Shown: positions 3,200 through 51,558, numbered from the whole stretch's first letter. The stretch: 63,352 bases of DNA, filler included, from 11 parts of 11 records of this genome joined end to end with filler, not necessarily neighbours in it, one strand, 5' to 3'. Notes: generated from the sequence alone by a model not told the origin. Numbers and translations are program-made.

Positions 3200-3299
3200 N
3201 NNNNNNNNNNNNNNNNNNNNNNNNNNNNNNNNNNNNNNNNNNNTTAATTAATTAANNNNNNNNNNNNNNNNNNNNNNNNNNNNNNNNNNNNNNNNNNNN
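3200..3299. other. Artificial contig linker
   Basis: N44-TTAATTAATTAA-N44 (stops in all six frames). Identical linkers at 12052-12151, 19968-20067, 23962-24061, 30554-30653, 34820-34919, 40658-40757, 46610-46709, 53009-53108, 60004-60103. Confidence 0.99.
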
Positions 3300-3453: not shown

Positions 3454-5308
<1,855 letters not shown>

Positions 5309-5661
5309 GAAGCAGATCTCGCGATTTTGGCAATTACTATAGCTTGGGAGATGTGCCATACTTATTGCTTGTACTTTAGTACTCGAATGAGTTACGAACA
5401 AGTAACTGAACGAAGCCGGCAACTACCATAATAACAATGTGCACATGTACATGCGTACCTTACATGTATGTATACTCGTACGTACCTTGGCATGGAATTA
5501 CCCGCTAGTGGTCAACGCACTTATATAAACACAGTTTTTTAGCTAACGAGTTTAGAATGAGCTTGGATTCATGAGTACGCAGTGTGATTTAATTAAGTAA
5601 ATTTCCATCATGAGGCCTACATGCCTACATGGGCCATCATGTCGTCGGGGTTTTAATGTTT

Positions 5662-8600
5662 CTACTTGGACACCTTTGTTGCTTCTCTTTGCGCTCGCCA
5701 TTCCTCGAGTTTGCGGGTTCTATCTGAACCGTCTCCCACGGAATTTCTACGGCGGGTTGCCCCCTGTGGTCGTGCTGAAGTTGGCCGGTCCTTTTTACGT
5801 GATGATGAGTCAACGTTGGCAGTACCACCTGATGTTCCCGGACGTGATGGATTTTCTGTAACATTAGGGGCTATCTTGTCGTTTGACCCTGTCTTCACCA
5901 ACTTGGTGCCTCCACGTGCAGCTAGCTCATCTGTTTCAACTTGAAGAATCTCACGATATGGGACCCCACGAACCATGAACACCTCATTTTGCTCGTGCTC
6001 CCATTCCTGGATTTTCTGCAGGAGTTCTATGCACAGTCTCTCATTCTTGCGCTTGAACAGTTTCCGCTCCTTCTCTTCTTTGAGCAGTTTCACTGACGAC
6101 CCCTTGAACCGATCAGGATTTGAAGCGGCAGCCTCAAACTCCTGAATTCTGTGTGTTAGCGATTCCCTAAATTCAATAGTCTTTAGAATTTCCCTCATTG
6201 AGTCCATCAGTCGCTGGACGCGAGCAGCTTCTTTCTGTAAAGCTTCAATCGCCTCCACAGGCTGTAATTTGTCTACATCGGCCAGGAAAGTGTCCTGTTC
6301 CACTCCTGGAGTTTTGGCTTCGAGCCACAACTCGACAAGTTTGCTCCGCACCTCACGCACTTTGAGTCGGACGCCAGCTTTAGCTTCGTCTATTGTGCGC
6401 TCGAGTTCCAGGATGGTGGCGAATCCACCCGTCTGAAGCTTCCCTTCAAGCCGGGCGCGCTGCTCTTCAGAGGGTTGCAATGCTTTCCATTGACTCTCCA
6501 GGGTCTCTTTCAGTTCTTGGGTGGCGTTTGCAACCTCCCCTGCTAAGGCCTCCAGTTCTGGCTTCCGCTCCTTGATTGCAGAAAAGCTCTGGATAGAAGG
6601 TTTCAGACTTTGCTCGAGCAGCTTGGCATCTATTGGACGCGAGATCCACTTAGTTGCACACTTGGCCTGTTTGCCAGCTGGTGGCTGAAGCTGTTCCAGC
6701 AACTTCACCACCGGCGTTGCCTCTGCTTCAAGCAGCTGGGCTGCTTGCTCGCGCAGAGTGACCACAACTTCATAGAGAGTCTTACCTTGGAGGCCTGCCT
6801 TGGTTGGGGATGCCAGGGCCGCATCGTAGTCAACAATACAGTTGACAAGATCTGTCATTTCGTCATTCAGGCTCTGCTTGTGGGCCATGTTCTTTTCCAT
6901 TTCTGTCATGACCAAGCGTACCGCATCCATGACAATCGAGTTTCGGAGCTGCTGCTGCTGCTCACCAGGTAGTCCAATTTGAGTCCACAACTCTCCGAGT
7001 ACCACCATTTGCTCCTGTGCCCATGTGCCTAGGCAATCATTGGCCTCCACTTCGTGGGCTGTGTCCATGACTTCCTTGGATGTGTCACTGCCGCCACCCA
7101 AAACCGGAGCGTCATGTGCGAGCGGTGACACCTCATTTTCCTGCAATTGAGCTAGCTCAGCCTTGAGATTATCCAGTTCCCTCTGCGTGTCGGTGAGCTG
7201 CACAGAGGCTGCTGCTAACTGATCTTCACCCTGCTCCACCAGAGCTTTCAAGTCAATGCTTTGCTGTTGATAGTAGTCGTGCCGCTCAGTCAACAGAGCT
7301 ATCTGCTCCTTCTGGCACTCCAACATTCGGGTGCTCGAGATCAGACTTCCCGCAGATTCAGTCTGATCGCTTGCAGATTCAACAGTGGACTCGGGTGGGC
7401 TGACCAAGCTTGTAGGCTTGCCCCCTACTTCACTGACTTCAGCAAGCATAACGAGCAGTCGTTCCTCATTGTCCTTTTGCATTACTGTAAGCTTTGCATC
7501 CCACTCTCGCTCTGCAAGCAGTAACCTCTGCTGAGTTGCTGCTAGCTGTTCATCTTTCATTGTCAATTCTTCATCAATTTCCAATCTTTCAGATTCCTTG
7601 ATGTTTGCTGTTGTTTCAAGTGCCTCTACCTTCTCAAACAGCGCCTGTATGGTGGCTTTGGCTTCCTCGAGCTCCTGAATAGTCTCTACAGTGTTCTCAA
7701 TTGTGTAAGTCCCTGCTTCAGCTCCAGGTCCCTGTACGGATACCATTTCTTCTTGCACGGCGATGATCCGCTCAGAGTCTAGATCAATTTGGGCATCAAG
7801 AGACTCGATTGCCTCGTCAAGGGTTGTTAGTTGAGACTGCTGAGCTTCAGATTGAACAGAATCACTTGCAACCTGGTTCGCTAACACGAGCCTTTCTTCC
7901 ATCATCTGCTCCATCTCTTTGACCTTCTCCTCTCTGCGTTCAAGATCTTCCTGTAATCTGGTGTTCACCTCCTTGATCTCTGCTGATTTCGCAAGCTCTT
8001 TCTCCACCCATCGCCTCTGCTTTGACAAGGAGAGTTCTTTATCGAGCATTTCTTGCTGTCCTGCAGCAAGTGCCATCTTTGAATCTACCACTTCCTGAGT
8101 CTTGCGCTTTAGCATTGCATCTTGACGTTTCGTCTTGCTCTGAAGGGCCATGGTTGCTTTCTTTGCTTCGTTATTCTTCTTGACCAGCTCTTTCTTTTCT
8201 GCTGCCCACTGTTCCCTCCGGAGTTTAAACCGCTCTGCCTCGTCTTTCATCCTTTTGGATAGCGCTTCTTTCTGACCTCTCAAGCTATCCAACTCCTGTT
8301 TCAGCTTTTTAAGCTGACCCTCTGATTGTTCTCGCACTCGTAATAGCCTAGCTTGGTCTCGCTGTTTTTTCTTTGTATGTGCTAGCTCCTGATTCAGCGC
8401 CTTCAACTTTCCTTCCAGCTCACCTTTGGACTTGCCTGGGGCAGGCTTAGGAACACTCTGGCCCTCAGCTGGCTTTTCCTCGAGGCGCGAAATCTCTGTC
8501 AGGAGACTTGCCTTGTCACTCTCAAGATTGTTTGTCACTTTTTGCAGTTCCGTCATTTTGAGATCATATTTCTGCTTCATTGCAACAAAAGCTTTGTTTG

Positions 8601-10869
8601 AACGAGTCAACTGCTGCATCAATGCCGCTTTTTCTTCCAGTGAACTATTCAATTCATCCATGTCTGCCTCCCTCTGGCGCTGCTCCCTAGCAAACTCGCG
8701 TTGTTCCTCAGCGTCGTCCTCAGCAAGTGCTTCCTCTTCATCGGAGTCCAGCTGATCCTCTGGTGGCGCTGCTGGAGAATCCACCAGTGGTATGAACATC
8801 CCGTTCTCATTAGCGCTATCAGAAAGATTGGTGGTGTTCCGGAGCATGTGCATTGTATCTTCAAGAACCTGGCCCTCAGAATCAGTGGGTGAACAAACTA
8901 AACACAGACCAAATTCATATCTAGCAGAGTTAATAAAATGTGTGGGCATAAAAGGTGTGGGCATAAAAGGGGTGGGTGCATAGAAGACCAGGCAAGTAAT
9001 TACCTGATTTTCTGCACGCAGCGACGCAATTGTTTTGAGATGTGACTCGAGGACTCCCTCTATCTCATCTCCAGCAACAGTGCCCTTGGCGACGCCCACC
9101 CCCTCAGCCTTCAGCTTAAGAATTTCAGATTTGGCTTGCAAAGTTAGCAGGTCTTCGTTGGCTTGGCGCTCACTGTTGGTCAAAGCAGTAACCTGAGCAG
9201 ACAATTCCTTGTTCTGGGCCTCAAGCTTCGAACAGCGGCTTTGGAGCAAATTCCAATCACTCCCTGTCACGCCTCCGTCAGTTGCACTTCCTGCAGTCCC
9301 TTCGCCGACGGTCCGACCCTTAAGTAATTCGACTTGTAGACGCGTTATCTCTTCCTTTAGCTGTGCTATCTGTAGAGAATGGGGATCCTTATTGACGATT
9401 GGCTTATTCTGAATATTTCGGGCCCTATTCGCATATTTGAGCGTGTTTAGGCTCTCATCAAAGTTTGAGTCAGCTGGTGAGATGCACGCAATCATCAGAG
9501 TCACAGAGTTGCCCCCCAGTGAGTCCTGCAGCAGCCTGGCACGCGCAGCCAAAGATGAATCGAATTTTCAGTCGAGATGTCTAGGCACACCGTGTGAGCT
9601 TTGAGTCTCGATAACGAACATGATCGCCTTTTCTTGCCGGATCGCCAAGCACTGCAATCACGTTTCCGAGGCAGAGTAAGCCCTGGTTGATAGCAATGCC
9701 CTCCCGAAAGCGCATACCCTCAGCTTTAGTTTTCTTAGCCCGCTCGGACCCTGCAAGGTCCACGAATCTCATCTTGGCACAGCAGAATTCGCCATCCGAC
9801 AACGATTGCTCGATTGTAATCGTGAAGACGGCGTGTGACCTGGACGAGGTAGCATTCATGTTTGTGGAGCCAGTAGTCCGGCAGAGCGAGCCCTGAAAGC
9901 CCCACATCACAAGCAGCGTCCACCAGCGGCACAGGACCTTTTCGAGCAGCTGAAGAACTTCAGCTGCAGTTTTAACCTCTTCCTCTTTGATTCCGACCAC
10001 TGTCACGCCTCCAGCTGCCCCAGGCCAATGCTCACATTCCATACGCTAGACAGTTCTCACTAGCAGGATCATCGCGCATTTGGATCGTCTTTGACTTGTC
10101 GGTAAATCCTGGGTCCAGAAGGTCATTGAAGTCTTCGTTGTAGAGCTCCAAGAACGACACAGAAACCTGCATCTGCAAGTTGGCACAAATTTGCGCAGCA
10201 TCGGCACCAGGAATTCAACGCCGTCCTTTCTCCGCTCATTCAATTGCATGAATATTGCGTGAATGCAACTGCAAGCATAAATTAATGGTGCCACAGCTGT
10301 TGACAAATACCGTGGGATAATTCCGAGGTTCTCCTCGGGCACCCCGATGCTGTTTCCACTCCCCATCGTGTAGGTCTGAGTACACACAGCAGCTCGAGGG
10401 CTGCTCTAAGGATACCAGTCGGACCTTCCCGGATCCAGTCTGCCCGTAGGCCAAGATTGTAGCGTTGAGCCCCTTGAATAAGCCGTCGAGAATCGGCAAT
10501 GAACACTCCTGACGCGGACACCGTCATGTCCGCACCGGTGGCTGGCCACACCTCACATAAACTCTTCTGGTCTGATCCCTGATCGTAGGTGTAATCATAG
10601 GTGAAGGCTTTGTCCTTCCCGATCACGACCTGGCCTCGCCTGCTCCACAACGCTGCCAGGCCAGCCACCTGTGTTTGCTCGTCAATGGTACGCACGCATT
10701 CCCGGCAACGCTCGGCTCGCTCTTTGTTCGAAAGCGGGCGGATGCGCAGTGCCTGAACCGGGTGGGCTCACTGGTGCGGGCCGGACACAGCAGCCGAATT
10801 CGATGGGAGGGGTGGGCTTGGCACCACTTTGACTTGTGAGACTGCGTCATTGGCAGCCTCGGGGTTCAT
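5662..10869 (-). CDS. Kinesin-4 family motor (KIF4/KIF21/KIF27-like) with coiled coil and C-terminal MAP65/Ase1/PRC1-like domain
   Basis: Spliced model [106 protein letters not shown]; tail [39 protein letters not shown]. Confidence 0.9.
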
Positions 10870-11366
10870 GCCGGCTCCACAGCCAGCCAGCCCGCCGCTG
10901 GCAGCCACTGCACCTCAAATCTGGCCAGGAGAGGACCGCTGCTCGCTCCTGCTCCGCTGCCAGGCAATCGCGGCAGCCGGGGCAATCGAAATCGCTCTCT
11001 CTGGACTCTCTCACCCAGGCAGCCAGGGATCAGGCAGGCGGTCGGGAGGCCGGACGAGCCTGAGCTACGTACGGCGGTACGGTAGCTGCCGTGCAGTGAT
11101 CTCAAGTGATCTTATGGGGAGTCAATCACATCATCGCATCATGGCTCTGAAAGCGAGGAGACCCAGCGGGCTTACAGCTAGCTTACAGCGGGCTGAGATA
11201 CTCGACGCGAAGCTGCTAGAGGATCACTGAATGAATCGCTTATTTGTCGATTTGTCTCGACAGAATCACGATCGATAAAGTCGTGGGCACCGTGGCAATG
11301 AATCATCCGTGTGACCATGTCACGGAAAAATATGTTTACAGGAGTTCATGGCCGCATGGCGGAGCC

Positions 11367-12051
11367 CTAGAATTTCTTCCATAGTTGGTCCATTGTGGAT
11401 TTGGTCCCGGCCATCACAGCCTCCACATCTTCAACAGTTCTGGGCACCCAAGTCATGTTCTCAATACCAGTGTCAGTGACAATCACATCGTCCTCAATCC
11501 GTACACCCCATGCGTGCTGGCTGCCTTGGTACAGCTTGAGCTTATCTTTGTTGAACAGCGGCGCTTGCTTGGCGTTGGACAGTGCCTTGCAGAGGCTATA
11601 TCTGTTAAAATAAAGCCCGGGCTCCACAGTAAGCACCATCCCAGGCTGGAGCACCCTGACCATCCTCAATGACTTATACCCAGGCTTTGTGAGCCGGACG
11701 TGGCCTTTAGGTCGCCCGCCCACATCGTGGGTGTCCAGCCCCATCAAGTGCCCTAGTCCATGCGGCATGAATACGGCTCCAAGGTTCGCATCCATGCATT
11801 CGTCGATGCTGCCCTGCTGCAAGATGCCTATTCTAATCAAACCTTCACAGATCACCTTGTACGATAGAGTGTGCATGTCCACGTAGGACACGCCCGGCTT
11901 CATCGCATCCATCACCGCGTGGCTGGCTGCGAGCACGATCTCGTATATGTCGCGCTGAGTTTGGGTGTACTGCCCGTTGACTGGGTACGAGCAGGTGATG
12001 TCACTCGTGTAGCACTGGTACTCGGCCCCGAGGTCCATCAGCAGCATCTCG
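11367..12051 (-). CDS. PEPD: Xaa-Pro dipeptidase (prolidase, peptidase M24B), 5'-truncated
   Basis: DLGAEYQCYTSDITCSYP, FMPHGLGHLMGLDTHDVGG, TVEPGLYF, GVRIEDD, VPRTVEDVE. Confidence 0.92.
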
Positions 12052-12151
12052 NNNNNNNNNNNNNNNNNNNNNNNNNNNNNNNNNNNNNNNNNNNNTTAAT
12101 TAATTAANNNNNNNNNNNNNNNNNNNNNNNNNNNNNNNNNNNNNNNNNNNN

Positions 12152-30659: not shown

Positions 30660-33600
30660 ATGCGACGGCTGCGGCGCTGGTGGCGGGGCGAGCCCGGAGC
30701 CGCGCCAGCCCCAAAGGAGAAGCTGAAGCAGGTCCCGCTGTACCAGCCCGACTGGTTCCCCGCCCAGCCTGCGCCGGCTGACCGCCATGCCGCAGCTCCG
30801 ACGTGCCATCGCTCCACGCGCTAGTCAGCGCCCAGGCCCAGCGCACTCCGGACAGCTGCGCGCTGGTGCACGCCCCGGAGCCGGCTGCCCAGATGCTCCC
30901 GGTGTCGTACGCGGAGCTGGAGGTCCAGTCCAACCTGCTGGCCCAGCACCTGCTCGCCCTTGAGTGCGCCCAGCCCGGCGAACCGATCGGGATCTGCTTG
31001 CCGCGCTCTTTCCTCTCCACTGTAGCGATCCTAGCCGTGATGAAGGCGCCGCTGAGGTCTGTGTGGCTGGCTGACTCTGCTGGGGGCAGCTGGCCTGTCT
31101 GTATGTGCCGTTGGACCCTAGCTACCCAGCGGGCTACAAGCGGCTCATCGTCTCAGTGGCCCAGCTTCGGCTGCTGGTCACTGCCAGTTTTGTGTGGCAA
31201 ACAGAGAGCTGGATGCAGGCACGCTGACCAGTCGGACGCGGCGGCTGAGCCGGTCGCAGGAGTTTGATATTCAGGCATTCATGGCAGATGCTGACGGTGT
31301 CTTGCTCCCACCCGATGGCCAGTACAAGCAAGGGGTCACGATTCGAGGCTCGGCGCTGGCGGTAGCCAACACGGTCACCCAGGCGTTCGAGTGCTACGTG
31401 CTCTTCACCTCGGGGAGCACTGGGCAGCCTAAAGGTCGGTGCTCGCTCTGTTTTGAGAGGAGACCTCAGCCTCAGGTGTGAGGGGCACGCACAGAGGGGC
31501 GCTCAACAGGATTAATTGGATGCTCGAATTCATCCCTTTCGTCGAGGGCGAAGTGTGCTCCCCTGACAGGCCTGCTCTAGTCGCCGGCAGGTTGGCTGCC
31601 ACAAGACTTCTCTCAACTTTGTGGACCACATCTGGGAGCTTTTTGGCCCTCTTGCAGTCGGAGTGCCAGTGGTGCTGCTCGACCAAGAGTCGAGCCGCTC
31701 GCTCACCCGCACAGTGCAGGCAGCCGACCGCGCTCTGCCGGCTGAGGGCTGGCCAGTTGCTCCGCACAATGCGGGTCTCGCGGCTCGTGATGGTGCCTTC
31801 GCTGATCCGGGCGATGCTCCAGTTGCACAGGGACCTGGCCAGCCAACTTCCCCAGCTCCGGTAGTCAAATGCCGGGCAGCCGCTGACTGTGAGTCGACAG
31901 GCACTTGAGCAGCAGCGGGGAGCCACTGCCTCGTGATTTGGCTGGAGCGCTGCAGGCCGCTGCACCAGAGCTCTTGCTGCTCAACCTTTATGGCAGCACA
32001 GAGGCGATCGGCCTGTCGGTGGGCAGGCTGACTGCAGGTGCAGGTGGCGGGGGACGTGACTTGTGGCGTTTACTCCTGGCTGGGCGAGTGTCACACAATT
32101 CGAGCCGACGGCGAGAAGGAGCAGATATGGCCAGCCACAGTGTCCATCGGGCAGCAGATCTATGGATGCGAGGCGCGACCTGGTTGTTAGCGCCCGCGTA
32201 AGGGCGGGGTAGGTACTTTTAATCAACGAGCAGATGGAGGAGATCTTCCAGGTTGGGGTGACTGGCGAGATTTGGGTGATCGGCAAGCAGAACTCACCTG
32301 GGTGGTCGGACATGTGAATGCACTCAAATCGCGGGGCAGGTACTACCGCAATATCGAGGCAACTCGGGCTGCATTTCAGCCGATCAAGGCCGCGGCCAAC
32401 CAGATGGGGTTCCGGACTGGCGATTTGGGGTGGTATGACTTGGGTAAAAACCTTCATTTTGCCGGGCGAAGAGATTGCCAGGAGCGATTGTCGCTGTGTA
32501 CACTCTGACAAGTGTGGGTGCAGGTGCAGTTGAATGGATTGAGGGTTGAGCTGCCAGAGATAGAGGTGGCGCTTCGGTCCCTTGAGATGGCGCGGGACGG
32601 TGCAGCGGCGCTGATTCAGAGCAGCGAGTGGAACTCTTGCCTGGCGGTGCTGGTGGTGTGCGAGCCGACTGCACAGCAGCGCGGCCAATGCGCCTCCAGG
32701 CAGCAGGCAGTAGCTGCAAACTTCAGCAGTCTGCCAGAAGAGGACCAGCACGACACCTGGCAGAATACATGCAGCGGATCGCAACAGTATTTGTCGGAGG
32801 GCGAGCTGAAACCAGATGCTGACATAGCAGAGGAGGTCGCGACTTGCCCAGCGGAGCCTGAGGAAGATGAATCGAATCGGTTGTTTGAGAAATCTGTCAA
32901 GCAGGCACTTGCCACAATGCTGCCCAAGCCTATGGTTCCTGCTCATGTTTTCGTTGTGTCAGCACTTCCTTTCACACCAAATGGCAAACTCGACCGCAAC
33001 GCTGTCTGTGCAGAGGCTGCAAAGCTTTTCCATGGGGAACAGTCCTACGCTTTGGCAGAGCTTCCGGCCACAGAGCTTCCGCTGACCGATACCGAGACGC
33101 AGCTGACTGAAATATGGACTCAAGTGCTGCAGATTGACCGTGTCCCAGCCACGGCCAACTTCTTCAGCCTTGGAGGCAACTCGATCTTAGCGCTGCAGAT
33201 GAGTGCTGAGATTGCGGCCAAGCTCGGCAAACCCGTCGAACTGGCCGAGATCTTCCAGTGTGGTACGGTCCGTGAACTGGCTGACATGATTGACCAAGAG
33301 GCCCGCACCATGAAACGATTCCAGCCAATCATGTGCCTGCACGAGACCCAGTCCACGCATCCGCCCCTCTTCATCGCGCCACCAGCTGGAGGCTTGGCGT
33401 TTCCAATGGTGCACCTAGTCAAGTCTCTTGCATCGGAGTGGGACAGCAGCCAGGATCGATCTGTATTTGTGTTTCAGGACCCAGCGCTGGATCAGGACAA
33501 GCCGCTTTCTGACACTCTGGTGGAGCTGGCCGACACACTATTGGACGAGTTATTCCGTGTTCAGCCTACTGGCCCATACTACCTCGCTGGCTGGTCGATG

Positions 33601-34748
33601 GGCGGACTGCTGGCATATGAGATGGCCTGCCAACTAGCTGAGAGCGGCCGGGCTGCGGAGGTTGGTCTGTTAATGTTGTTCGATCCACCAATTCCAGAGA
33701 GTTCGAGCAAATTGGGCACGGTTAGGTTCTGGAAAGGAGTTCTAGGGGATGTCAAGGACCTGCAGGACGGGCTGCACCTGCTACAGAAAGCGGAAGAGCA
33801 TGATGGCAAGCGTGGTCTGGTCCGTCGAGTTTTTGGGCTGGTCAAGGGCTCAGAACAACTCAAGGGCACGGAGCTTGGGCAGGAAGCTGCCCCGCCCGCA
33901 ATGAGGCACATGGTTCGTGTACTGCACCACCACCACAAGCTGGAAGGCGAGTACGCCCCGAGGGTGTATGAAGGACCGGTGCACATTCTCCGGCCTGTCA
34001 AGCCATTCGAACAAGACCTACGGGACGCGAACTTCTGGAGCAAATTGGTACGATTCTCCCAGGTAAATCGGTGCAAGGGCGACCACATAACTATGATGCG
34101 CTCCGAAAATACGTCAGGCCTGGCCCGTACAGTTGCGCGGCTACTGAATTCAGTTCCGGCTGATATGGATCGGGTTGAAGGCGAGGTGTTGAATCCCACT
34201 GGAAAGCGGAGATTCAGCATTGGGGTGCAGGTGTGTGCGGTGGTGACTGGTCCGCCATGTGGGGGTCCGGCTGATCATGACCGTTGGGTAGCTTTGTGCG
34301 GCAGCTGAGAGTCAAAGCTAGGGTACAGGTCTGTACAACCTGCTCAACATGCACGGATGGCTGGGGCTGTGGCGGGGGCAAGCGGACATGGTATAATATT
34401 CGTGTGATGGTACACACCAAGGCCTCATCTAAGGAGCTCTGTTGGCAAGTCAAGCGGCGGTATTCCATGCCAGTGTTTAGTTGAGTGACAACCGTGGGTA
34501 GGTACAGCCACTTTTTGAGTCTGTGCCGGATAATGAAGGAAGAGATCGGCGATCAGCTCTCAGAGACTTTCACTTGGTTTCGACCCAAGTATTGGTATGG
34601 CAACAAGACAAAGAAGGTAGTCTCAGAGCGCCTCGAGCTAATCAACTCGTTCTTTCAAGCTCTCTACCCGGTGGAGTACTCCCATCCGGTGATGCAAGCT
34701 TTTTTATCGTTCCCCCACTCAGGGATAAGTCGAACGCGCCCATTATGA
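30660..34748 (+). CDS. Monomodular NRPS-like protein A-T-TE with a probable C-terminal PX domain (about 14 introns)
   Basis: YVPLDPSYP, YVLFTSGSTGQPKG, SGEPL, NLYGSTE, FRTGDL, GRRDCQVQLNGLRVEL, PFTPNGKLDR; carrier FFSLGGNSI (Ser at 33181); TE GPYYLAGWSMGG and GDHITM; PX WQVKRRYSHF..RPK..ERLELINSFF..HPVMQAFL. Confidence 0.9.
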
Positions 34749-35466: not shown

Positions 35467-38044
35467 CTAAGGGAGCGTGTCCAACGTGACTGGAGAGTCG
35501 AGTTTGACTGACACGTTGGCGATCAGTTCCTTGCTGTTACCATTGGATATGATGAACTGGTGAATACCGCCATACAGCATGGAATTTCCCACACTATCGA
35601 CAACTGCCAGAGCCGTTGCATTGAAGTCAAAGCTGACAGTAGTATCGGCGCCACGGCTCAGCGACACTCGGTTGAAACCCACAAGACGACGGTGAGGCAG
35701 CCGTATAGACTCATGAGCTGGCCGAGCGACAGCGACCGCCCGGTGGTAAACCAATACAACCTCGTCACCTTCCCTGGATCCTGTGTTAGCCACCCTGACT
35801 GCCATTGTAATTGTCTGTGCTGCGGATGTAATCGGCACCGATGGCGGCTGCTCCTTCCAACTCAAGCCAAACACAGTCAAGCTGAGACCATGACCAAACT
35901 CAAACGAGGCAGGCTCGCCCGTCCAGTATCTGTACGATCGACCGACCCCGGCAGTGAACGACATCTCGAGCATCGGCACCTGGGATGTGTAGGACGCCCG
36001 GTAGATCGATACCGGCAGCTTGCCCCATCTATTGTATCCTGGCAAACCGAATAGGCTGTTCGCGACAGCTGCCCCACCTTTGAGGCCGGGGTAGAAGGCT
36101 TCAACAATTGCCAGTTTGTTAGGCGGTCTGGCCAGATCGGCGAGCTTGTCGATCGCCACGATACCGCCGTTAAAAAGTACCACAACTGTAGGCTTGTTCA
36201 GCGCGATCAGAGCGAGCGCCAAGTCCTCTTGCAGACCCGGTAGAGTGATGTTGGTCCGGTCACGCCCTTCGCTCTCGATGTTTGAATCGATCCCAAGGGC
36301 AACTACGATCTGGTCAGCCGCCTTTGCTACCTGGATCGCCTGATCAAATAGAGTCGTGTTGGCGCAATCCAAGTCAACACAGCCGGCAGCATGCATGGTG
36401 CGATCCGCGCCATTGATCTGACTGACCGCGCTGAACAGCGACTGGGAGCAGCTCCAATCCAGTGCACAGAACTGCGAGTCGCTTCCTGCGCAGCACATGT
36501 TGCTACTCCCGTGGGGGCAGCAGGAATTACAGTTTTCGCTCGTACAGCGTGGTGCCCTTGGACACTCCGCTGGCAGCGGGCACGCAACATTGAAATAGCT
36601 TCCAAGCATCACGCGCTCTCCTGTAGCGTGCGGCCCGATCACGGCCGTTGTCCGCTCCGGCTCGAATGGGAGAGTGTTCAACGGATTCGCCAGGAGCACC
36701 AGCCCTTGGGAGGCGATCTCTAGAGCGAGCTGATGGTGCGCTGCGGCTCCAAGATTTTCGAGCCCAATCTTGGTGTATAGTTGATGTTCCTGCGGATCGA
36801 ACAGTCCGGTTTCCATCCGGAGTCCGATGTTCCGGCCCACAATCGCGTCTAGCTGCCCCTCCGTGGCCAGATTCGCCTTGATGGCATCAGGGATCGACTC
36901 ATAAGCAAACGCAGGCCCACCGCACTCAATGTCCGTACTGGCCGCAAGTGCCTTGGCCGCGTTCTGAGCTGGTGTCATCTTGCTCTCTGGGCCTGGCATA
37001 CTCAGTGCGGTGCAGTCAGTCACTACTGCCCCCCGGAAACCGAGCTTGTCTCTGGCCCAGTGCTGTATCCATTCAGCAGACTCACACATGGCAGTTGAGT
37101 TGATTGACGTGTAGCTGCAGCCAACGCCCGGTGAGCGCCGGGCGGGCCTGTTGCACACCTGCACATCATCCCGAGCGCGCCGCCCTCCACAATCCCGAGC
37201 TGGAACCCGGGCAGGTAGCTGTCGGCCATATCGTGCCGTGAGATCTCAGGGTTGAACCCTTGCCTAGACGCCCCGCCAGAGCTCTCCATCGAATAGGCAG
37301 TGAAGTGCTTGAGCGAGCCGAGCAGCTTGACATACCGAGGATCTTCGCCTGCCGCCCGCCGCCTCAGCCAGGCGCACAGCGAGCCACCGTTTTGGACTCC
37401 GAGCGTGACTTGTGCGCCGAGCTTGCCCGAGAGCAACGGATCTTCGCTCGGCACTTCGATGTTCCGGCCCCAACGCGGATCTCGCACCAGGCTGCCCCCT
37501 GGCTCGGCCCCCGCCGGCCGGTAGTCACTTGATGTTTGGCCCCCAGCCGTTGAGCCCCACGCTGTCCCCGGGCTGGCAGTGCCCGTTTGCATTGTTGGCC
37601 GCACGCATCTCCGTTGATATCGCTCCACCCATCGCCCGCCAGGCGCTCCTGTTGAAACCCGCCTGCCGGCCACAGGTTCCGCCCTGGCTGGCAGGTGGGC
37701 ACCGCGGCGTTGGCCAGGACGGGAAATATAGTGGGGCAATGTGGGCCAACGCACTCGATCCCGGCGCCGTGCAGGATTTCAGTGCCCCAGGTGTATGACG
37801 GGATCCCCAGCCGGGGCACCCCACCGTCCCCCGAGTCGCCCCGAGTGTAGGTGAGGCCCACTTTCTCCTGCAGTGTCATTCGGCCGAGCAGGTCGCGCAC
37901 TCGCTCGGCGATCGGGAGCCGCCAGTCGCAAAAGGGCAGCCCGGCAGTCAAGTTGTCCAGGCACGCGTGCCCAGCCGGCACCCCAGCCTCGGTGTGGAGG
38001 ACTCCAACCACCAGGATGGCGACCAGAGCCGGAGGAAGTCGCAT
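35467..38044 (-). CDS. Glycoside hydrolase family 3 beta-xylosidase-like, secreted
   Basis: Signal peptide; FCD..RVRDLLGRMTLQEK, WGTEILHG, PNINLVRDPRWGRNIE, KHF, MMCSY, VVTDC, ESEGRDR, GRSYRY, FGHGLS, Fn3-like tail; four GT-AG introns. Confidence 0.93.
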
Positions 38045-38260: not shown

Positions 38261-40438
38261 TCAAAACCGAAGCTCGCCGTCTATTATTCGCTGGCGTGTG
38301 AGCTCAGTCAGCTCTACGAAGCTTTGTTGCTGGTCATCGCGCACAAACACGCTCGAGCCCGGCTCGTGCCCGAACCCGAGCCGCATCAGCTGTCCCTTGG
38401 TGTGCTTGAGTGTGTGCGACGTAGCGAGCGCGGGTTGCACTCTAATAAACACCGGCCGCGCAAACTTGGCTAGATTGGCGTGAGTGAACTGCCAGACCAG
38501 CCCGAAGTCCACAGGTTTGTCCTCAATCGCGACTGCGCCGCACTTGCCTGCGGCGCCAGGGATTTCGACGCCAAACGCCACGCAGACAGGCGAGCCGAGC
38601 CCTCCGCTCCTGATGCAGACAGCTTCCACTTCGGCGGTCGACACGTTCTCGCCCTTCCAACGGAATGTGTCCCCCAGCCGGTCCACGAAGTAGATATAAC
38701 CTAGAAACCGGTCAGCAATCCCAACGGCCGCCCCACCGTCGTGGTCCCAGCGCAGCAGGTCACCCGACCGGAACCACGCGTCGCCCGGGCTGCGCACTCC
38801 TCGAAGCACCTATGCCCACCGGCTCCGCGCAGTCGGCCCATAAAACACCTTGGACTGGTTCTGGTCGGCTTGAGCATACCCGTCGAATCGCCGGGCTGGG
38901 TTGTTGGGGTCTATCAACCCGATCACCTCCCCAGGCTCGCCTCTCTCGGCCTCGATCAGTGTGCCGTTGGGCCGTCGGATCGGCTCAAGCGTGTCGGGGT
39001 CAACCTTTATGAACCGGACCTGGTAGATCGACTGCATCACTGCGGCCATGTACCCGACCGGTCCGAGTCGTCCGCGGTTGTTGAACAGGTTCACATTCCT
39101 GCCGCCCCACTCTCCCAACCCCTCCAAATGGCGCACCCTTCAGTCGAGCCATAGAACTCTCCAATGCAGGGCACCCCAAACCGACTCTGCCGGCCGGCTC
39201 GCCCTACGCCCGACGGCCGACCTACCTGGAACTGTGCGGCCGCGTCTGCGTGCAGCCCGTTGCCGATCGCAAGCCTCACTTGATGCGACTGGTCGGCCTC
39301 GCTCGAAGGGCTGGCGAGCAGGTACCGGCCGAGCTCGCCGATGTAGAGCACCACCGTGCAGCCGTGCTCGGCGCAGTCCGGCCAGAACTTTGTGGCTGAG
39401 AACTTCTCTCGCACCACGAGAGTGGCGCCGCGATGCCAGCACATGGAGACCTGCAGCCAGTCAGCCGCGCGACCAGCTGGGGCCCACCGCAGCCATGCCA
39501 GCCGAGCTGTGGTGCAGCGGCAGCGACGTATAGACTCGGTCCGACCGACGCAGCCCGTACAGCGAGGCAAAGGCCAGGCCCGCTGCGTAGAACCGCATGC
39601 TGGAGATCTTGGCAGCCTTTGGCAGACCGGTGGTGCCTGAGGTGTAGACATAAAACAGCTCCGAGCTGGCGACAGGCGCTGCAGGCACCGGGACCTCTGG
39701 CTGGCCGGCGATGGCGGCCGTCCAGGCGATCCACTCCACCCCAGCCGGCAGCTGGCCTGTGAGTGGCCCGTCGTGCAGGCAGAGCGTCAGGCCACTCCCA
39801 GCCGCACGCACCGCGTGCTCGAGCTGCATCCCAGCCGATGCCGGGTGAATTAGCGCCGCCACCGCCCCCGCCTTGGACAGTCCCACCCAGCTGGCCACCA
39901 GCGCCGCCGCCGACTCGATCCGCACCCCCACGCAGCCCTCCACCCCCCGGCCGACCGCCCAGTGCGCTACCCGGTTACTCAATCGATCCAGCTCGGCGTA
40001 GCTGAGCGCCCGACCGGTGCGCAGCTCATGGATTGCCACCCGCCCCGGCGCATCCCGCACGCGCGTGGCTAGCATCTGCAGCACCGGCGATTCGGCTCGG
40101 CGGGCGGCGAGCCGGGCGGCGAGCTGGACTCGGAGGAAGGGCACGCCCAGGTTGAAAGCATCCTGCCACAGCTCGCAGAGCACAAGACAGATGCCCCGGA
40201 GCGGCCAGGGCAGGCGGGCCAACCGCGGGTACCAACGGCGCAGGTAGTTGGCCCGGCGGGCACGCAGCAGCATGGTGACGCACTGGCGCGCGTAGCAGAC
40301 CGCCATGAAAAGAGCTCCGAGCAGCAGCAGTGGCAGCAGCACTAGCGTCAGCAGTGGCATCAGCGCGAGCGTCACCAGTGGCAGCAGCACCGGCATCGCT
40401 AACACCCCGCATGCGGCCACAAGCGCGAGTCGCACCAT
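38261..40438 (-). CDS. Very-long-chain acyl-CoA synthetase / fatty acid transport protein (SLC27/FATP-like)
   Basis: YVYTSGTTGLPKAA, LPLHHSSA, KFSATKFWPDC, YIGELGRYL, EFYGSTEGN, GDAWFRSGDLL, YFVDRLGDTFRWKGENVST. Confidence 0.93.
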
Positions 40439-40757
40439 GGCTCGTCTTGTGCGCCTGGTGCTGCGAGGAGGTGAACGAGGACGAGGCATAGGATTTACCG
40501 CGCCGGCGTTGGATTATTATTCAGGCGATCTCAACTTACAGTGTACTCGAGGTAGAGGCGGCGTACGGCAGTTGAGCAATCAGGGATGTTCAATACCGCG
40601 AGCCGGGCCCAGCAGCCGCTACTCGAAGCGCCACCGGCCGACCGGTCGCCGGAGACCNNNNNNNNNNNNNNNNNNNNNNNNNNNNNNNNNNNNNNNNNNN
40701 NTTAATTAATTAANNNNNNNNNNNNNNNNNNNNNNNNNNNNNNNNNNNNNNNNNNNN

Positions 40758-43700
40758 GCCCTGGGCGACGCCAACCAAGACGATGATGGTTGTAGTACCC
40801 AGGTGAGCTGCAGTAGCCGCCTGGTGGCCGATCGGGGGCAGGTGGGGGGGTGTCCCACGATGGGGGACAGCCTATCCCAGGCCGGGCCTGACCAGGTGCT
40901 CGCCCCCATCTCCAAACCCGCGCTTGGTCCACAATCGCCTCGAGCCGGGCGACGGGCAGCAGGAAGCGCTGCCCAAAACCGAAGTCACGTGGCTTCTGGA
41001 GGCTGGTTTGCCGGCGCCACGTCCAATGGCAACTGGGCCGTCTTCAGAGGCCACGATCCCAAGATGGCCGTCGGCTTGGATGGCGACGTGTGGTCAGCCC
41101 GCGGGGCCGGCAACAGGGGCCGCGACGGTGCAGGCTGGGTCCAGCTCAGAGTGGCCGGCGACGCCGTGGCGCTTGGCCTGCCGGAGACGGGATTGGGCAG
41201 CACTATGGAGGACTGGCGGCTGGCCGAGAGCAGCACCGGGGCGCTGCTGCTGGTGCAGGGGCAAGACGCGCCGGGGGGAGCGCATACTGTGGGGCCTCTC
41301 TACAGCCGGAGAGATGTGGACAGCAGCCATGGGCGGTGGCTGGGTGCAGAAGCGGGATGCCAGGCCTGCTGAGTCGTCTCGGGCTGCCAACTCGATGTCC
41401 ACTGTGTGGGCGAGCGCCGGAGCTGGCGTGCTGGGCGAGGTTGCTCTGGAGGTGGGGGACTGGGATCTTGGCGAGACCGAATCCGGAGACTTCGGGGTGC
41501 TTTATCAAGGCGAGCTGAGGCTGCTGGTGACCAAGCTGGGAGACTTGTGGAGTGCGTACCCACCAGGCTGGATCCGCAAGAGGAACGGCCAGGGACACGA
41601 TCCAGGCCAACTGGTTGCTGTCACGGATTGCGTGCTGGGGCCATGGCAGCCGTGGGACCTTTGTTCAGCCTGTTGCGGCGAGGGTGGTACTAGGAATCGC
41701 CGGCGCGAGGTGGTTGTGGAGCCTACAGGCGGCGGTGTGGTCTGCGAGCATCAATTGGAGACAGAGAGCTGCAACAGACACGTGTGTGCACCGGCCGAAC
41801 CGAGTGCGCAGTACGCCCAAGAGGATGACACTCTGCTGGCGCTTTGGCTGAGCACACGTGGGGCCGAATGGCGGCGGAAACGGTGCTGGATGACCGGAGC
41901 GAGTCACTGCGACTGGGAAGGAGTCACTTGCACACCTGCCGAGCCGGGATCCACAGGCCCAATCACAAGCTTGTCGCTTGAGCACAATAATCTCGATGGC
42001 GAAATACCCGACCTCTCTGGAGTTTCTTACCTTCAACACCTCTCAATAGCTCGGAATCCAAGAGCCAACCTAGCAGATGTGGCCACTTCCAGGTTCGACC
42101 AGCTCACTGGACTTTTCGCGTCTCCAGAGCAACTTCACCGCGCCTTTGTGCCCGATGTACAGTTCCAGGGTCCGCTGCGCAGAGTCAACAACCGAGGGGT
42201 CGCCCCGGTAGCTGCAGCTGCGAGGGTCCTACAGCAGTGGCCGGCTGGGGCCCGATGGTGGAGGATCCGCCAGCACAGCTACATGCAATGCGAAGAGCGA
42301 CTGACTCATTGTGGTGCTCCCTGGCGAATTCGCGAAGTCGTCTTCTCGACGGTGCCTGGTCCTCCAGGATGGGAGAGCACGGCTGACGGAGACGCTGCTC
42401 CTATCAGCGACCAAGGCACAGTGCCTGTAGGCTTCACTCAGTCTACGGAGGGTGCAACGAATGAGGGCTTCGAAGTCACCAACGCATTCGATAATGACGA
42501 GGCGACCTACTGGAGTTCACAGAAGTACTCACTTGGCTGGATCGGCCAACGCTTTGACGCTCCAACAGTTGTCAAGGCCGTGAAGCTCCTCACCTTTACG
42601 TCCAACAATAGTCTGTCTGACTTGCCCCGGTCCGTCATTCTGGAGCGCAGCCTCGATGGCAAAGTGTGGGAGATGGTGAAGCTCTTTGCCGAAGAGACTG
42701 ATCACGGTAACATGCGGAGCACTGGCTTCTCTCTAGCAGGTGCATCATCAGCAGGGAACCCGTTCCTCCTCGAGACAAACATCGATCTGGCCTCCCCAGG
42801 CGCGCCAGTTTACTTCCACCGATTGCAATCGGCGAGCACATCTGCCGGTGCTTTGACATGTACCAGCTCCGCAAACTGGACGGCGGGAGCATCCTCTTCG
42901 GCATCGTTCAACGCCAAATCTGGCATCAAGGGCGTCAGTTTCTCCTGTCCAGCTGATGCAGATGTTGTGGCTGGCTTGGCTTCTCAGGACACGATGGTGG
43001 GTCAAAATATGCATCAAGAGATTGGCTGGGGACTGCACTGCCTTAGCGGCCAACTGAGCATCATGGAAAACGGCGAAGAGAAAGTCGATGTTGGGGAGTA
43101 CTTTAATGCTTCAGTCCTTGAAGTGCGGCTCAACTCGGATCCTGGGGTGTTGCAGAGGACTGCCAGGTTGGTAGAGTATTACCGCGATGGCGAGCGGCTC
43201 TTTACCTCTTCTGCAGTCCCCTCACCGTCACAGGCCCTGCTTTTCAAAGCTGCTTGTAGCAACGCCGAAGCTACAATCAGTAACGTAGCTTGGCTGGGCG
43301 AAGATGTCTGGCGGTGGGCCAGTAACTGCAGCCAGGTGATCTCGTGCGATTCCCCGCCGAGGATGAGCTCTTGTGTGTGCAGAGTACAGGCTCGTGTGCT
43401 GGCGCGAACGATATGAGGCTCGATACATCCGCTGTGTTATCGCAGGTCCGATTTTTAATTACTAACCCGGCTGAGTCTGTCGCCAGGTGGTGGATAGCTG
43501 GATCAGCTTCGATCTTGGTAGTTGGAAGTCTGTCTCTGGTTTGAAAATGTTCAAGCCATACGATGCGGGTGCCGCTGGTGTGAAGGAATTTGTAGTGGAA
43601 AGGGGCGACGGGCTGGGAGCGAATCTATGGGAGTCTTCTGACGAGGACCAAGGGCAGTACATCTGGACCACATGGAGGACGGTGCGGTCCCTGCCTGATC

Positions 43701-48240: not shown

Positions 48241-51200
48241 TCAGACTAACTTGCCTCGATGGACGACATGTCCGTCAACGAGACGAACGTGTGTCTCGAA
48301 AGCGAGCGAGCCATTCGTGGTTGTCGTGACATCAATCACGCGACTTCCGTCCATGTACCCATCGCACTGATAGCCACCGAAGCCGGAGTGACGGCCAAAG
48401 CACAGATCTATCGACCGTTCACCTAGCTGGCAGCAAACGTCATTGCAATGATCGTGCCCCACGAAAACCGCGCGCACCTCCGGCGCCGCCTCTAGCGCAG
48501 CGAAGAGGCCTGCATTATTCAGTGTTGGTGTGATACCCTCAGTCTTGACACCAAAGCACTTTCCATGCTCATACGCCTCGGAGAATTCCGGCAGCGGGAT
48601 GTGGACAAAGACAAGCGCAGGCACAACCGCACCGAATGCTGCACGCCGTGCTGCCATGGTCTGATTGAACCAGTTCACCTGTGCTGGGGCGAGCCTTTCA
48701 GCCATGCCTCCGCCGCCGGAGTCGAGGTGGACGAGTTGGAGGGCCGGCACCGAGCTGCTTGAATTGCGGCCCATCACATCAACCACATACACTGATGCCG
48801 CCGGCCAGAGCTCTGCAGGACCAAGTGCGGAGTGAGAGTTGGGCAGAGATGCGTCATGCCGCATCAGTGCAACTCGATCAGTCTTAGCGCCGGAGCTCGA
48901 TTGGTTGCCTGTCTGTGGCTCGGCGTCGTGGTTACCTAGAATCGCCGTATGCGGAATATCCTTCTCGTCCAACAGCCCAACCAGTTCATCCCAGTAGGCC
49001 GTGGCGTTGGCGTCGATGTTCAGCCCTGTCAGCTGGTCGCCTGAGAGCACAACCAGGTCCGGTTCCTCGAGGGGCAGCACAACTGAACGGAGGCCAGCAA
49101 AGGTCTCGCTATCCTGGCGAGGCCCCCATGGCACACTCTCCCCCTCGCCCATGTGAACATCGGCGATCTGCAAGATGCGGAACGACCCATCATCACGGAG
49201 GCGCAGCGGCGCGGGTGGTGACGGAGCTGAGCCAGTCAAAGTCTGCACTTGAACAGTTTGGACAGCCCCCACCCACACCCCCCCTGGTCTGAGATCCACT
49301 GCTGGTCCCGCGCTTAGCTGCAATCGGGCAGGGCTGCCGCTGTCAGCCGCCAGCCTGATGGTCATATTGTCAGTGTCGAGCTCGAGGTCAAGGACAATGC
49401 CGTTGTATTTCAGCCGGCGGAGTGCCATGGTGGACGAGCTCGGAGGAAGCACCGGCCTGAGTTGAAGTGACTCGCGCAGCACTCTGACCCCGCCATATCC
49501 GTATATGATCGCTTGGAGGAACGAGCCGGCCGAGGTGAGGTAGCCCACGTTCCCGCCCTCGTTCGGATTCTCGGAGAAGGTAAAGTACGGCTCAAAGCAA
49601 AAGTTCTGGTAGGTGGCTTTAAACTCGGTGGCGGCCAGCTTCAGCCACTTTGGGTCTTTCGAGCGAGCGGCTCTGTCGAGCGCCAGGATGCAATGCACGC
49701 CATGCTGCATGTCCGGCCAGGACTCGGTGTGCGCAGAGTAGAAGGCCAAGTCGTTGCTGGCGACCTGCTCGCTGATGTTGGCTAGCCGGTCAAACATGAG
49801 AGGAAAGTAGAGCAGTAGCGTGTCGGCCTGCTTCGTCTGGAACTTGTCATCGAACTGCATCCCAGCGTATTGCGGGTGCATCTGCCGCTGTTGATCGAAC
49901 AGCACCACCAGCCGCTCACTCACATCCTGCCAGCGCGGATCTGGTTGTAGCCCGAGAGCAGTTGCTGCCTCGATCGCAAACTGCATGGCCGAGATTGCTC
50001 CAGCATTGGTGTATGTGTTGTCATCCACACCAGCGTGGTGCTCATCCGGGCCGTACACGTTCAGGATGGACAGCGCGTGGCTTCCGTTCACGGGCGTTGT
50101 GCGAGACACGTAGAAGTCGGCCACACCGCTCGCAATGGGGTACCCGACCGCTCGGAGCCACGTTTGGTTCCGAGTGGCCCACCAGTAGTTCCGGGCTGTT
50201 GAAGCAATGTCTGCAGAGAAGTGGATCTCGTTGGTCCCCAGCGGAGAGACCCGCCCGTCGGCTGCAGTCACTTCGGCCCCCGAGGCCGCTGACTGGCACG
50301 GAAACATTGTGCCGTTGTAACCGAGCCCGGCGGCCTTGAGCCTGGCCTCCGAGATCCGGACGTGCCGGTACCGGAGCACCCCGGCCGCAAACTCGGGCCG
50401 GAAGATCGAGATGGCCGGGTAGATCCAGTAATCAACATCCCATAACATCCCGCCCCCCCAGTGCCCGAAAGCACCCTCGCTCAACGCTTCCATTCCGCCA
50501 GGGTAGCCTGTGCTCCAGGTCTCATCGGTGGCCGATATGATATTGTAAAGCGAGGCGTTCACCGCCCTGCGCACAAACGGGTCCCCGTCCAGCTCAATCA
50601 GGTTCTCACGCCAGGCCGCTCGCCAGGCGGCAGTGTGTTCTGCCAGCAGCGAGTCCGGGGCAGCTGCTGCCTCTTGTTGGATCTGGAGCGCCGCGCCCAG
50701 AGGATCGGCCGCCAGCTGCCCAGTCTGGACTGCCCCCACAAAGAACCAGCGCCCGCCGCCCTTCGGCACGGCCAGTGGGGACCGCACAGCCGTGTGGACG
50801 TACCCGATCGTGCTGAGAGGGTATCCAGGGATCTCTGGCACCCTTGTGGTGCCCAGCCGGCAGCTCAGCCCAGGCGGGCATGAGACATTGTTGGCCCAGG
50901 CCACATCCCACTCGGGTCCGCCGTTTGGGTCCGCCACCCGCTGGCTGCCGTCGGGTTGCTCCACCGTCAGCTGGACCGGCTGGGTGACCGACCCGTCCAC
51001 CCGCAGCTCCATCACCAGCAGCGGCTTCCGGGTCCGGTGAGCGTACCAGCGCTGCTCGGCCACCCCCCCGTCGAGCACGGTCCGCCGCAGATAGGTTGCG
51101 GCCTCCAGGTCCAGCGCGCACCCGCCGGACGGGCCAGCCAGCCGGATGGCCATCCCGGAGGGCACGCGGGCCAGGTGTGAGCGCTGCGAGAGCGGGGACG

Positions 51201-51486
51201 AGGCATTGCCGGCGCCGGCGGTCGGGCCGAGCCCGGTGTAGACCCCGGCCACGAAGAGGGTGCCCGAGTCGACCAGGGTGCCGACCAGCCCGTTGGCCAC
51301 CGAGGCGTGCCGGCCCCAGACCGAGGACACCCCGTGCTGGCTCACCGTGCAGTTGGGGTTCCAGAGCATGCTGCCCGCCCGCACCCGGGCCGCCCACTCC
51401 GGCGGAATCGCCGGGTCTGCCGGCACGTGGGCCACCAGCAGTGCCAGCAGAAGCGACAGTGTGGGCGACAGTGCTACCGCCCACAT
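48241..51486 (-). CDS. Secreted GH65-like glucosidase/trehalase (PGGHG/ATHL1-like) fused to a calcineurin-like metallophosphoesterase (PAP29/DCR2-like)
   Basis: One open frame; signal peptide; WDVDYWIYP, GTMFPCQS, EIHFSAD, GPDEH, KQAD, YLTSAGSFLQAIIYGYGG; then ILQIADVHMGE, SGDQ, GNHD, FVHIPLPEF, GHDHCND, GRHSGFGGY. Confidence 0.88.
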   Translation of the reverse strand: MWAVALSPTLSLLLALLVAHVPADPAIPPEWAARVRAGSMLWNPNCTVSQHGVSSVWGRHASVANGLVGTLVDSGTLFVAGVYTGLGPTAGAGNASSPLSQRSHLARVPSGMAIRLAGPSGGCALDLEAATYLRRTVLDGGVAEQRWYAHRTRKPLLVMELRVDGSVTQPVQLTVEQPDGSQRVADPNGGPEWDVAWANNVSCPPGLSCRLGTTRVPEIPGYPLSTIGYVHTAVRSPLAVPKGGGRWFFVGAVQTGQLAADPLGAALQIQQEAAAAPDSLLAEHTAAWRAAWRENLIELDGDPFVRRAVNASLYNIISATDETWSTGYPGGMEALSEGAFGHWGGGMLWDVDYWIYPAISIFRPEFAAGVLRYRHVRISEARLKAAGLGYNGTMFPCQSAASGAEVTAADGRVSPLGTNEIHFSADIASTARNYWWATRNQTWLRAVGYPIASGVADFYVSRTTPVNGSHALSILNVYGPDEHHAGVDDNTYTNAGAISAMQFAIEAATALGLQPDPRWQDVSERLVVLFDQQRQMHPQYAGMQFDDKFQTKQADTLLLYFPLMFDRLANISEQVASNDLAFYSAHTESWPDMQHGVHCILALDRAARSKDPKWLKLAATEFKATYQNFCFEPYFTFSENPNEGGNVGYLTSAGSFLQAIIYGYGGVRVLRESLQLRPVLPPSSSTMALRRLKYNGIVLDLELDTDNMTIRLAADSGSPARLQLSAGPAVDLRPGGVWVGAVQTVQVQTLTGSAPSPPAPLRLRDDGSFRILQIADVHMGEGESVPWGPRQDSETFAGLRSVVLPLEEPDLVVLSGDQLTGLNIDANATAYWDELVGLLDEKDIPHTAILGNHDAEPQTGNQSSSGAKTDRVALMRHDASLPNSHSALGPAELWPAASVYVVDVMGRNSSSSVPALQLVHLDSGGGGMAERLAPAQVNWFNQTMAARRAAFGAVVPALVFVHIPLPEFSEAYEHGKCFGVKTEGITPTLNNAGLFAALEAAPEVRAVFVGHDHCNDVCCQLGERSIDLCFGRHSGFGGYQCDGYMDGSRVIDVTTTTNGSLAFETHVRLVDGHVVHRGKLV

Positions 51487-51558
51487 CTCCAGAAGCTTCG
51501 TCGCAAGGTGCGGTAGCCTCGCCACGGCCAGTGCTACAGACGTGCCGTTGAAACTCCA

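Follow-up and report, generated by a model that had tools for sequence, protein, structure and literature searches.

In animals and plants, kinesin-4 motors and crosslinkers of the PRC1/MAP65 family are separate partner proteins that organise the spindle midzone. As the minimal system given in textbooks for setting the overlap length of antiparallel microtubules, the PRC1-KIF4A pair behaves according to the ratio and the affinity of its two proteins. Kinesin-5, kinesin-14 and kinesin-6/centralspindlin resemble such a system in that a single molecule grips two microtubules and displaces one relative to the other, but they do so with a motor pair at each end, with short basic tails or through partner proteins, and we know of none among them that carries a whole MAP65/PRC1 module. 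Here, we analysed a window of 63,352 nucleotides (nt), that is, the whole stretch of DNA under study, in which 11 parts of 11 records of one genome are joined with filler. Positions 5662-10869 of its minus strand hold a gene whose product begins with a kinesin motor and ends with a PRC1-like tail. The best explanation, and in our judgement a probable one, is that a kinesin-4 is covalently joined here to a complete PRC1/MAP65/Ase1 module, likely making a self-contained, motorised crosslinker of antiparallel microtubules.

According to excerpts of PMC10620760, the KIF4A C-terminus (residues 1133-1232, with two Phe-Phe motifs) binds residues 1-168 of PRC1 at the dimerisation/rod interface, and the PRC1 residues predicted to contact KIF4A include I25 and W26. 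PRC1-KIF4A cross-bridges and slides antiparallel microtubules, with plus-end tags setting the final overlap (PMC6200392, in part). The protein described here is like the human pair in drawing on both families, in the meeting of a kinesin-4 C-terminus with a PRC1 N-terminal region (excerpts of PMC10620760), in its module order, which is that of PRC1 5-444, and in the bundling, sliding and plus-end accumulation that would be expected of it (PMC6200392, in part). It is unlike the human pair in that the link is covalent and the PRC1-like module stands in place of the usual KIF4 C-terminal tail. Because of the covalent link, stoichiometry would be fixed at 1:1 and recruitment could not be switched by phosphorylating a binding motif. 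The gene is best read as a "Rosetta-stone" fusion, since the ends joined in it are those that bind each other non-covalently in humans. In plants, too, a kinesin-4 (for instance moss Kin4-Ic) acts on antiparallel overlaps marked by MAP65 (PMC10316633, in part), but the two proteins are encoded by separate genes.

A PRC1/MAP65-type module at the C-terminus

The tail was defined as the final 462 residues of a long open frame (frame residues 840-1301; window 7050-5665). It matches the Pfam family MAP65_ASE1 (PF03999) at 55.0 bits (cut-off 26.9; expectation value [E] 7.8e-15) over profile positions 79-433 of 477. Compared by sequence with the PDB at E<=1, the tail gave three distinct matches, all three of them PRC1. 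The match to PRC1 4l3i covers chain positions 211-436 (E 4.6e-9), and the spectrin domain matches 3nrx (5.8e-8) and 5kmg (5.5e-8). An AlphaFold2 (AF2) model of the tail, built from a 100-sequence alignment, has a mean predicted local distance difference test (pLDDT) score of 86.2, and the top eight PDB matches returned by Foldseek with this model are all PRC1. VIA-align placed residues 1-381 of the model on PRC1 5-444 (4l6y_B; Z 13.2, 360 residues) and the spectrin domain on 3nrx_B (Z 10.3, root mean square deviation [rmsd] 2.9 A, 87 residues, 31% identity). By homology, the tail is a member of the MAP65/Ase1/PRC1 family in a variant architecture: it departs from the stand-alone, non-motor form usual for MAP65, the module being the C-terminal third of a kinesin.

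The module begins with a PRC1-like N-terminal helical hairpin (6826-7050, minus strand, as for all parts of the gene), the equivalent of the dimerisation domain, recognised from the AF2 model and VIA-align. Its predicted helices span residues 2-25 and 29-75, with pLDDT mostly >90, and its LxxxWxxIG motif (LGELWTQIG) corresponds to LREIWELIGIP of PRC1, the Trp being kept. A helical bundle resembling the PRC1 rod domain follows at 6232-6825, identified by AF2 helices, collinearity with 4l6y and 4l3i and the sequence match. The spectrin-fold microtubule-binding domain, assigned through the PDB sequence matches and VIA-align, occupies 5908-6231. R314, L322, E325, E326 and R329 are nearly invariant across the 100 aligned MAP65-family sequences, and an Arg and two Lys that align with the NRF..LLKEEK stretch of PRC1 are retained in the tail; they align with PRC1 R377, K387 and K390, which we take to be microtubule-contact residues. 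With hairpin, rod and spectrin domain collinear with PRC1 5-444 in the predicted structure, the description of the module as apparently full-length, made in an initial annotation of this DNA by eye, is justified. The tail peptides which that annotation quoted also lie where it had put them (LGELWTQIG from 6999, NPDRFKGSS at 6120, and the others at 6357 and 6012).

By its composition, the protein's last part is a basic, low-complexity tail of 84 residues (5665-5916), with 20 Lys and Arg vs 9 Asp and Glu and an isoelectric point of 11.4. The pLDDT falls below 50 at tail residues 391-441, which are predicted to be disordered, as the initial annotation had proposed for this basic end; a helix follows at 442-461. 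At the extreme end of the protein (5665-5730), the helix is conserved, and L448, E449, W451, R452 and A453 are invariant in five close relatives. We know of no PRC1 counterpart to this terminal helix.

A kinesin-4-type motor and stalk

The kinesin motor domain, recognised by Pfam and by motifs in the spliced translation, extends over the first nine exons and the beginning of exon 10 (9412-10869). Exon frames matched Pfam Kinesin at 126.6 and 51.8 bits, the latter match being to the motor's last 42 positions, and in the spliced model all three motifs are intact: GQTGSGKT at residue 91 (P-loop), SSRSH at 216 (switch I) and DLAGSE at 245 (switch II). Searched against the PDB, the 100-residue exon 9892-9593 found KIF4 best (3zfc, 110.4 bits, 3.5e-31), with KIF7 (96.6 bits), KIF18A (85.4), KIF15 (80.9) and KIF3B (78.3) next; judged by the sequence scores of this one exon, the motor is nearer to kinesin-4 than to any other family compared.

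The neck and a kinesin-4-type coiled-coil stalk, assigned with Pfam, occupy 7135-9411, a span that includes an intron at 9003-8869. KIF21A_4th (PF25764) was found at 8218-8745 with 93.5 bits (cut-off 33.1), and KIF21A (PF23203) gave a weak match at 7627-8010 (20.8 bits, under its cut-off). When the whole frame was searched, the fused relatives described below were followed by KIF21A/B, KIF4 and plant kinesin-4 (plant about 140 bits). Profile search thus recovered both families, Kinesin and MAP65_ASE1, and the predicted tail structure led to PRC1, as the initial annotation had anticipated. Its central proposal of a kinesin-4 and a PRC1-type crosslinker in one polypeptide stands, with both family assignments obtained, one open frame across them and the junction kept in relatives.

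The stalk is joined to the PRC1-like module by a short linker containing Gly, Ser and Pro in its translation (7051-7134); it is conserved less than its flanks in the alignment to the relative P0001 and is presumably flexible. About 90 residues ahead of the hairpin lies HDYY (7264-7275); the exons within the open frame contain no other aromatic pair, and this one is kept in P0001 and P0154. Human KIF4A differs here, as its FF pair is absent from this protein, which has the YY pair instead. Human KIF4A and CENP-E bind PRC1 through aromatic-pair motifs (excerpts of PMC10620760), and we offer as speculation that HDYY is a relic of the motif that docks free kinesins onto PRC1.

Gene model and transcripts

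A hand-made gene model, checked by script, gives a coding region of 11 exons at 5662-10869 whose frame closes with a single terminal stop. Exons 1-6 are at 10869-10825, 10752-10669, 10629-10552, 10508-10425, 10375-10311 and 10268-10208, and exons 7-11 at 10166-10061, 10014-9938, 9892-9591, 9535-9004 and 8868-5662. From the ATG at 10869, the modelled coding sequence is 4641 nt long (1546 codons). All 10 introns (39-135 nt each) have GT..CAG ends; they were placed by kinesin homology and GT..AG ends, and RNA confirmed intron 9590-9536, for which a spliced contig from a polyA (polyadenylated RNA) metatranscriptome has the junction as modelled. Near the start of the gene, a 19-nt intron that would excise the in-frame TGA at 10770-10768 was ruled out as it breaks the frame, and the 72-nt intron 10824-10753 was taken.

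The initial annotation was right to end the gene at 10869, since nine more short exons, reaching to the ATG, hold the remainder of the motor. It had also placed the end of the motor, the coiled coil and the tail in one stop-free frame at 5662-9552. This frame is real and slightly longer than proposed (9567 to 5665, 1301 codons, with the stop codon at 5664-5662), and at the local base composition so many stop-free codons have a chance probability of about 2e-30, but the frame includes intron sequence in two places. Its first bases, 9567-9536, are intron, and the raw frame seems unbroken further on because the intron 9003-8869 is in frame and stop-free. The translation of the latter intron has nothing corresponding to it in P0001. 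The intron itself (135 nt, GT..AG) carries a direct repeat, CCCTTTTATGCCCACA being present twice.

Short RNA contigs of 100% identity to the window, from four marine metatranscriptome runs of three studies, lie at 5800-6540, 7056-7842 and 9161-9640; the first of these is on the tail and the second on the stalk, adjoining the junction. The two halves are not separated by intergenic sequence, nor does a stop or a frame change fall between them. A single product is favoured because the junction is open, RNA lies next to it and it is conserved in independent assemblies. We read the locus as a single nuclear gene whose probable source is a marine, alveolate-like protist, as suggested by its nearest named relatives, which are alveolates, and by the matching RNA, which comes from seawater.

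Fused relatives and the MAP65 tree

Searched with the tail, 1.84 billion representatives yielded 372 matches at E<=1e-3, and 150 of these were listed. Pfam was run on 28 of the listed matches, mainly the closest and longest, and on eight further proteins; among the matches listed, a kinesin motor was found in 3 of the 28 scanned (P0022, P0023 and P0062). Pfam detected both Kinesin and MAP65 in P0023, P0062 and P0162, the last of which also has KIF21A_4th. By their source names, P0062 is the Mesostigma viride gene model Mv21139-RA.1, P0162 is the Amoebophrya sp. AT5.2 gene model g11153.t1, and P0022 is the EukProt transcript GEMP01000633.1.p1 (1478 amino acids), whose name marks the open reading frame (ORF) as complete; P0160 is Vitrella brassicaformis CEM37179.1, a kinesin-4 of 2188 residues. 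P0162, P0062, P0022 and P0160 are collinear with the window protein, each having a kinesin motor followed by a KIF21A_4th stalk and, at the C-terminus, a MAP65-like region, but their identity to the window frame is only 26-29%. In P0160, Pfam misses a MAP65-like stretch at residues 1721-1941, which is divergent and was seen only in a profile comparison by hhalign (probability 91%, E 1e-6). Pfam is blind to the MAP65 part of P0022 as well, which phmmer with the window tail found. PRC1-type modules may lie hidden in other alveolate kinesins.

Stalk and tail are conserved collinearly in five relatives (P0001, P0155, P0004, P0159 and P0022), and the independent sequences sharing the architecture include several proteins from metatranscriptomes. 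P0001, which is partial, shares 55% identity from the end of the motor into the PRC1-like hairpin. P0155 combines MAP65 with a sub-threshold KIF21A stalk match (23.7 bits, cut-off 28.5), whereas P0159 lies 0.1 bit under the KIF21A_4th cut-off and has no Pfam MAP65, its tail being detected by phmmer (4.9e-29). In local phmmer alignments, the frame residues covered were 440-1295 for P0155, 411-1298 for P0004, 379-1226 for P0159, 10-193 and 269-1211 for P0022, and 10-466, 511-714 and 1101-1198 for P0162.

A phylogeny computed for the MAP65 region of 128 rows, most of them unnamed (LG+G4 without a mixture model, quick search, unrooted), placed all eight fused rows inside one 22-row clade, with a Shimodaira-Hasegawa-like approximate likelihood ratio test (SH-aLRT) value of 95. 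The window's tail falls in this clade, whose identified members are dinoflagellates and Mesostigma viride. Fragments and rows without a motor lie scattered among the fused ones, so that the "fused" label takes seven changes on the tree, which is consistent with one old fusion without proving a single origin.

A tail-profile search of 8000 candidates of 1170-3340 residues found no match, a blank that is uninformative, as the search also missed the known fused P0022, which is in that range. Among metagenome contigs, a pattern search reduced 594 matches to one locus, the 2338-nt contig of P0003 (L001), which has no motor. In the ESM Atlas, the 1301-residue frame met kinesin-4-like clusters only, all <0.9, and no Kinesin + MAP65 cluster, a blank that is uninformative on novelty or absence.

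The initial annotation had raised the possibility that the architecture is new. This holds for the literature searched in full text, where no paper describing it was found, but not for sequence collections, as the architecture is present, unannotated, in public protein sets; fused relatives are named there "unnamed protein product", "Kinesin motor domain-containing protein" or by a bare gene-model or transcript id. No description of a kinesin-MAP65/PRC1 fusion was found in full-text literature, and database architecture tables (InterPro, Pfam) may list one. The term "MAP65" has 0 occurrences in the main text of the kinesin surveys PMC2867816, whose list of 105 architectures sits in additional files, and PMC1434745. 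The architecture is thus real, conserved and apparently undescribed, and it is made from two well-known families.

Two further MAP65 proteins have other partners. P0126, a Logan protein of 2045 amino acids, has two N-terminal calponin-homology domains, filamin repeats and a C-terminal MAP65_ASE1 domain (86 bits), a domain content that makes it a candidate actin-microtubule crosslinker. P0116 combines MAP65 with a PEBP domain.

Proposed mechanism and alternative readings

In the explanation that we favour, the spectrin domain and basic tail would hold one microtubule and the plus-end-directed motor heads would walk on a neighbouring one. As a single-chain equivalent of PRC1-KIF4A, the protein would bundle and slide antiparallel microtubules, and its accumulation at plus ends would limit overlap length, with the motor:crosslinker ratio fixed at 1:1. 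A parallel kinesin dimer joined to a two-fold PRC1-type dimer could yield dimers or tetramers. A complex prediction for two copies of tail residues 1-180, run without an alignment, scored 0.00 with an uncertain fold, so that it does not bear on dimerisation.

A broader proposal, tentative and on balance doubtful, is that the fusion arose long ago in myzozoan alveolates (this organism together with chromerids, Syndiniales and dinoflagellates), that other protists may share it, and that it replaced the two-protein module there with a single-chain "overlap ruler" and left HDYY as a relic. If so, PRC1-type dimerisation of two parallel kinesin dimers could give a bipolar tetramer that organises unusual spindles.

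Several observations weigh against a single motor-crosslinker chain of the PRC1-KIF4A kind. The full-length fold match has a template modelling score (TM-score) of 0.40 and an rmsd of 23 A, with no tight superposition; the low score and high rmsd arise because the rod is long, jointed and flexible. Taken by itself, the hairpin's HMMER alignment to PRC1 (chain positions 21-68) falls short of significance. In the basic C-terminal tail, a sequence scan found no Ser/Thr-Pro (S/T-P) site, and regulation may therefore differ from that of PRC1, which is under the control of cyclin-dependent kinases (Cdk); comparable control is not evident in the basic tail here. The lack of S/T-P sites, the clade-specific conserved C-terminal helix and an overall identity to human PRC1 of only 17-19% would also suit a real fusion whose PRC1-like part was re-purposed as a generic microtubule- or cargo-binding tail in a non-mitotic array, such as cortical, flagellar or other bundles, and plant kinesin-4 and MAP65 work in interphase arrays too (PMC10316633, in part). 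We consider re-purposing unlikely, however, as the PRC1 parts are all retained in order, including the hairpin Trp and the residues aligned with NRF..LLKEEK, and retention of the whole module suggests selection on crosslinking geometry.

The remaining points against a fused product concern transcripts and relatives. No single contig from the marine metatranscriptomes bridges motor and tail, RNA cover is absent at 6541-7055, which takes in the opening codons of the PRC1-like module, and only 1 of the 10 introns has RNA support. The low-depth contigs also leave 5400-5799, 7843-9160 and 9641-11100 without cover; since the metatranscriptomes are of low depth, gaps in cover are not evidence of absence. 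Among the fused relatives, P0023 (a EukProt Trinity transcript of 1119 amino acids) is less trustworthy because both of its ends translate like sequencing adapter (..DVYKRQ.. and ..VSYTHL..); it also lacks the KIF21A_4th stalk. The clade that holds the fused rows has 14 rows without a detected motor. Some are fragments and others are proteins like P0014 and P0127, from the dinoflagellates Biecheleria and Polykrikos; they may represent transcripts cut short or genuine stand-alone forms.

The lack of a contig across 6541-7055 would fit a locus that makes separate products (a PRC1-like protein on its own, a kinesin-4 lacking the tail, or both), through an internal promoter, alternative polyadenylation or proteolysis, with the fused form minor or absent, as would the several clade members that are MAP65-only with a Met shortly before the hairpin (e.g., Biecheleria P0014, 575 amino acids). 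We regard such a split as quite improbable: the halves run on with no stop, intergenic sequence or frame change between them, the RNA contigs at 7056-7842 lie directly upstream of the module, and the stalk-tail junction is collinear in P0001, P0155, P0004, P0159 and P0022, the ORF of P0022 being marked complete. Mis-joining of neighbouring genes by the assembly or the gene model, to which a draft sequence with masked stretches and a first reading by eye might point, is in our judgement extremely improbable given the 100%-identical RNA contigs from independent marine samples on both sides, the same order and junction in independent assemblies of other organisms, and an open frame far beyond chance.

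Other features of the window

The gene is flanked by a DEAD-box helicase gene on the opposite strand (3663-4946) and an M24 peptidase gene on the same strand (11367-12050); from their positions, the kinesin gene occupies 5662-10869, with about 0.5 kb to spare upstream. Paired runs of 44 N, with 12 bases between the two runs of a pair, occur at ten places in the window (e.g., 3200-3299 and 12052-12151; 880 N in total), and the M24 peptidase gene that directly precedes the kinesin gene is interrupted by one such pair.

Elsewhere, an open frame of 1210 codons on the minus strand (48244-51873) encodes a glycoside hydrolase family 65 (GH65) catalytic domain and a calcineurin-like metallophosphatase domain, a pairing that is uncommon, if this is one gene. 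Pieces of carrier-protein-dependent enzymes are present at 32509-34305 on the plus strand (PP-binding and thioesterase) and at 39464-40513 on the minus strand (an AMP-binding adenylation domain). Near them lie a GH3 glycosidase (35470-37245) and a protein with TSP1 and F5/8 type C domains (40807-43413).

Implications

A kinesin-4 joined in nature to a PRC1-like module would provide independent evolutionary support for the contact between the kinesin-4 C-terminus and the PRC1 N-terminus as the functional core of the two-protein system. The same chain would be a ready reagent for examining how a fixed 1:1 stoichiometry affects sliding, end-tagging and overlap size. For sequence annotation, the locus and its relatives indicate that PRC1-type proteins hidden within kinesins can be missed, as Pfam fails on two of the fused relatives. 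The fused architecture may also give access to how the spindle is organised in alveolate protists, among them the parasitic Syndiniales and the dinoflagellates, whose mitosis is poorly understood.

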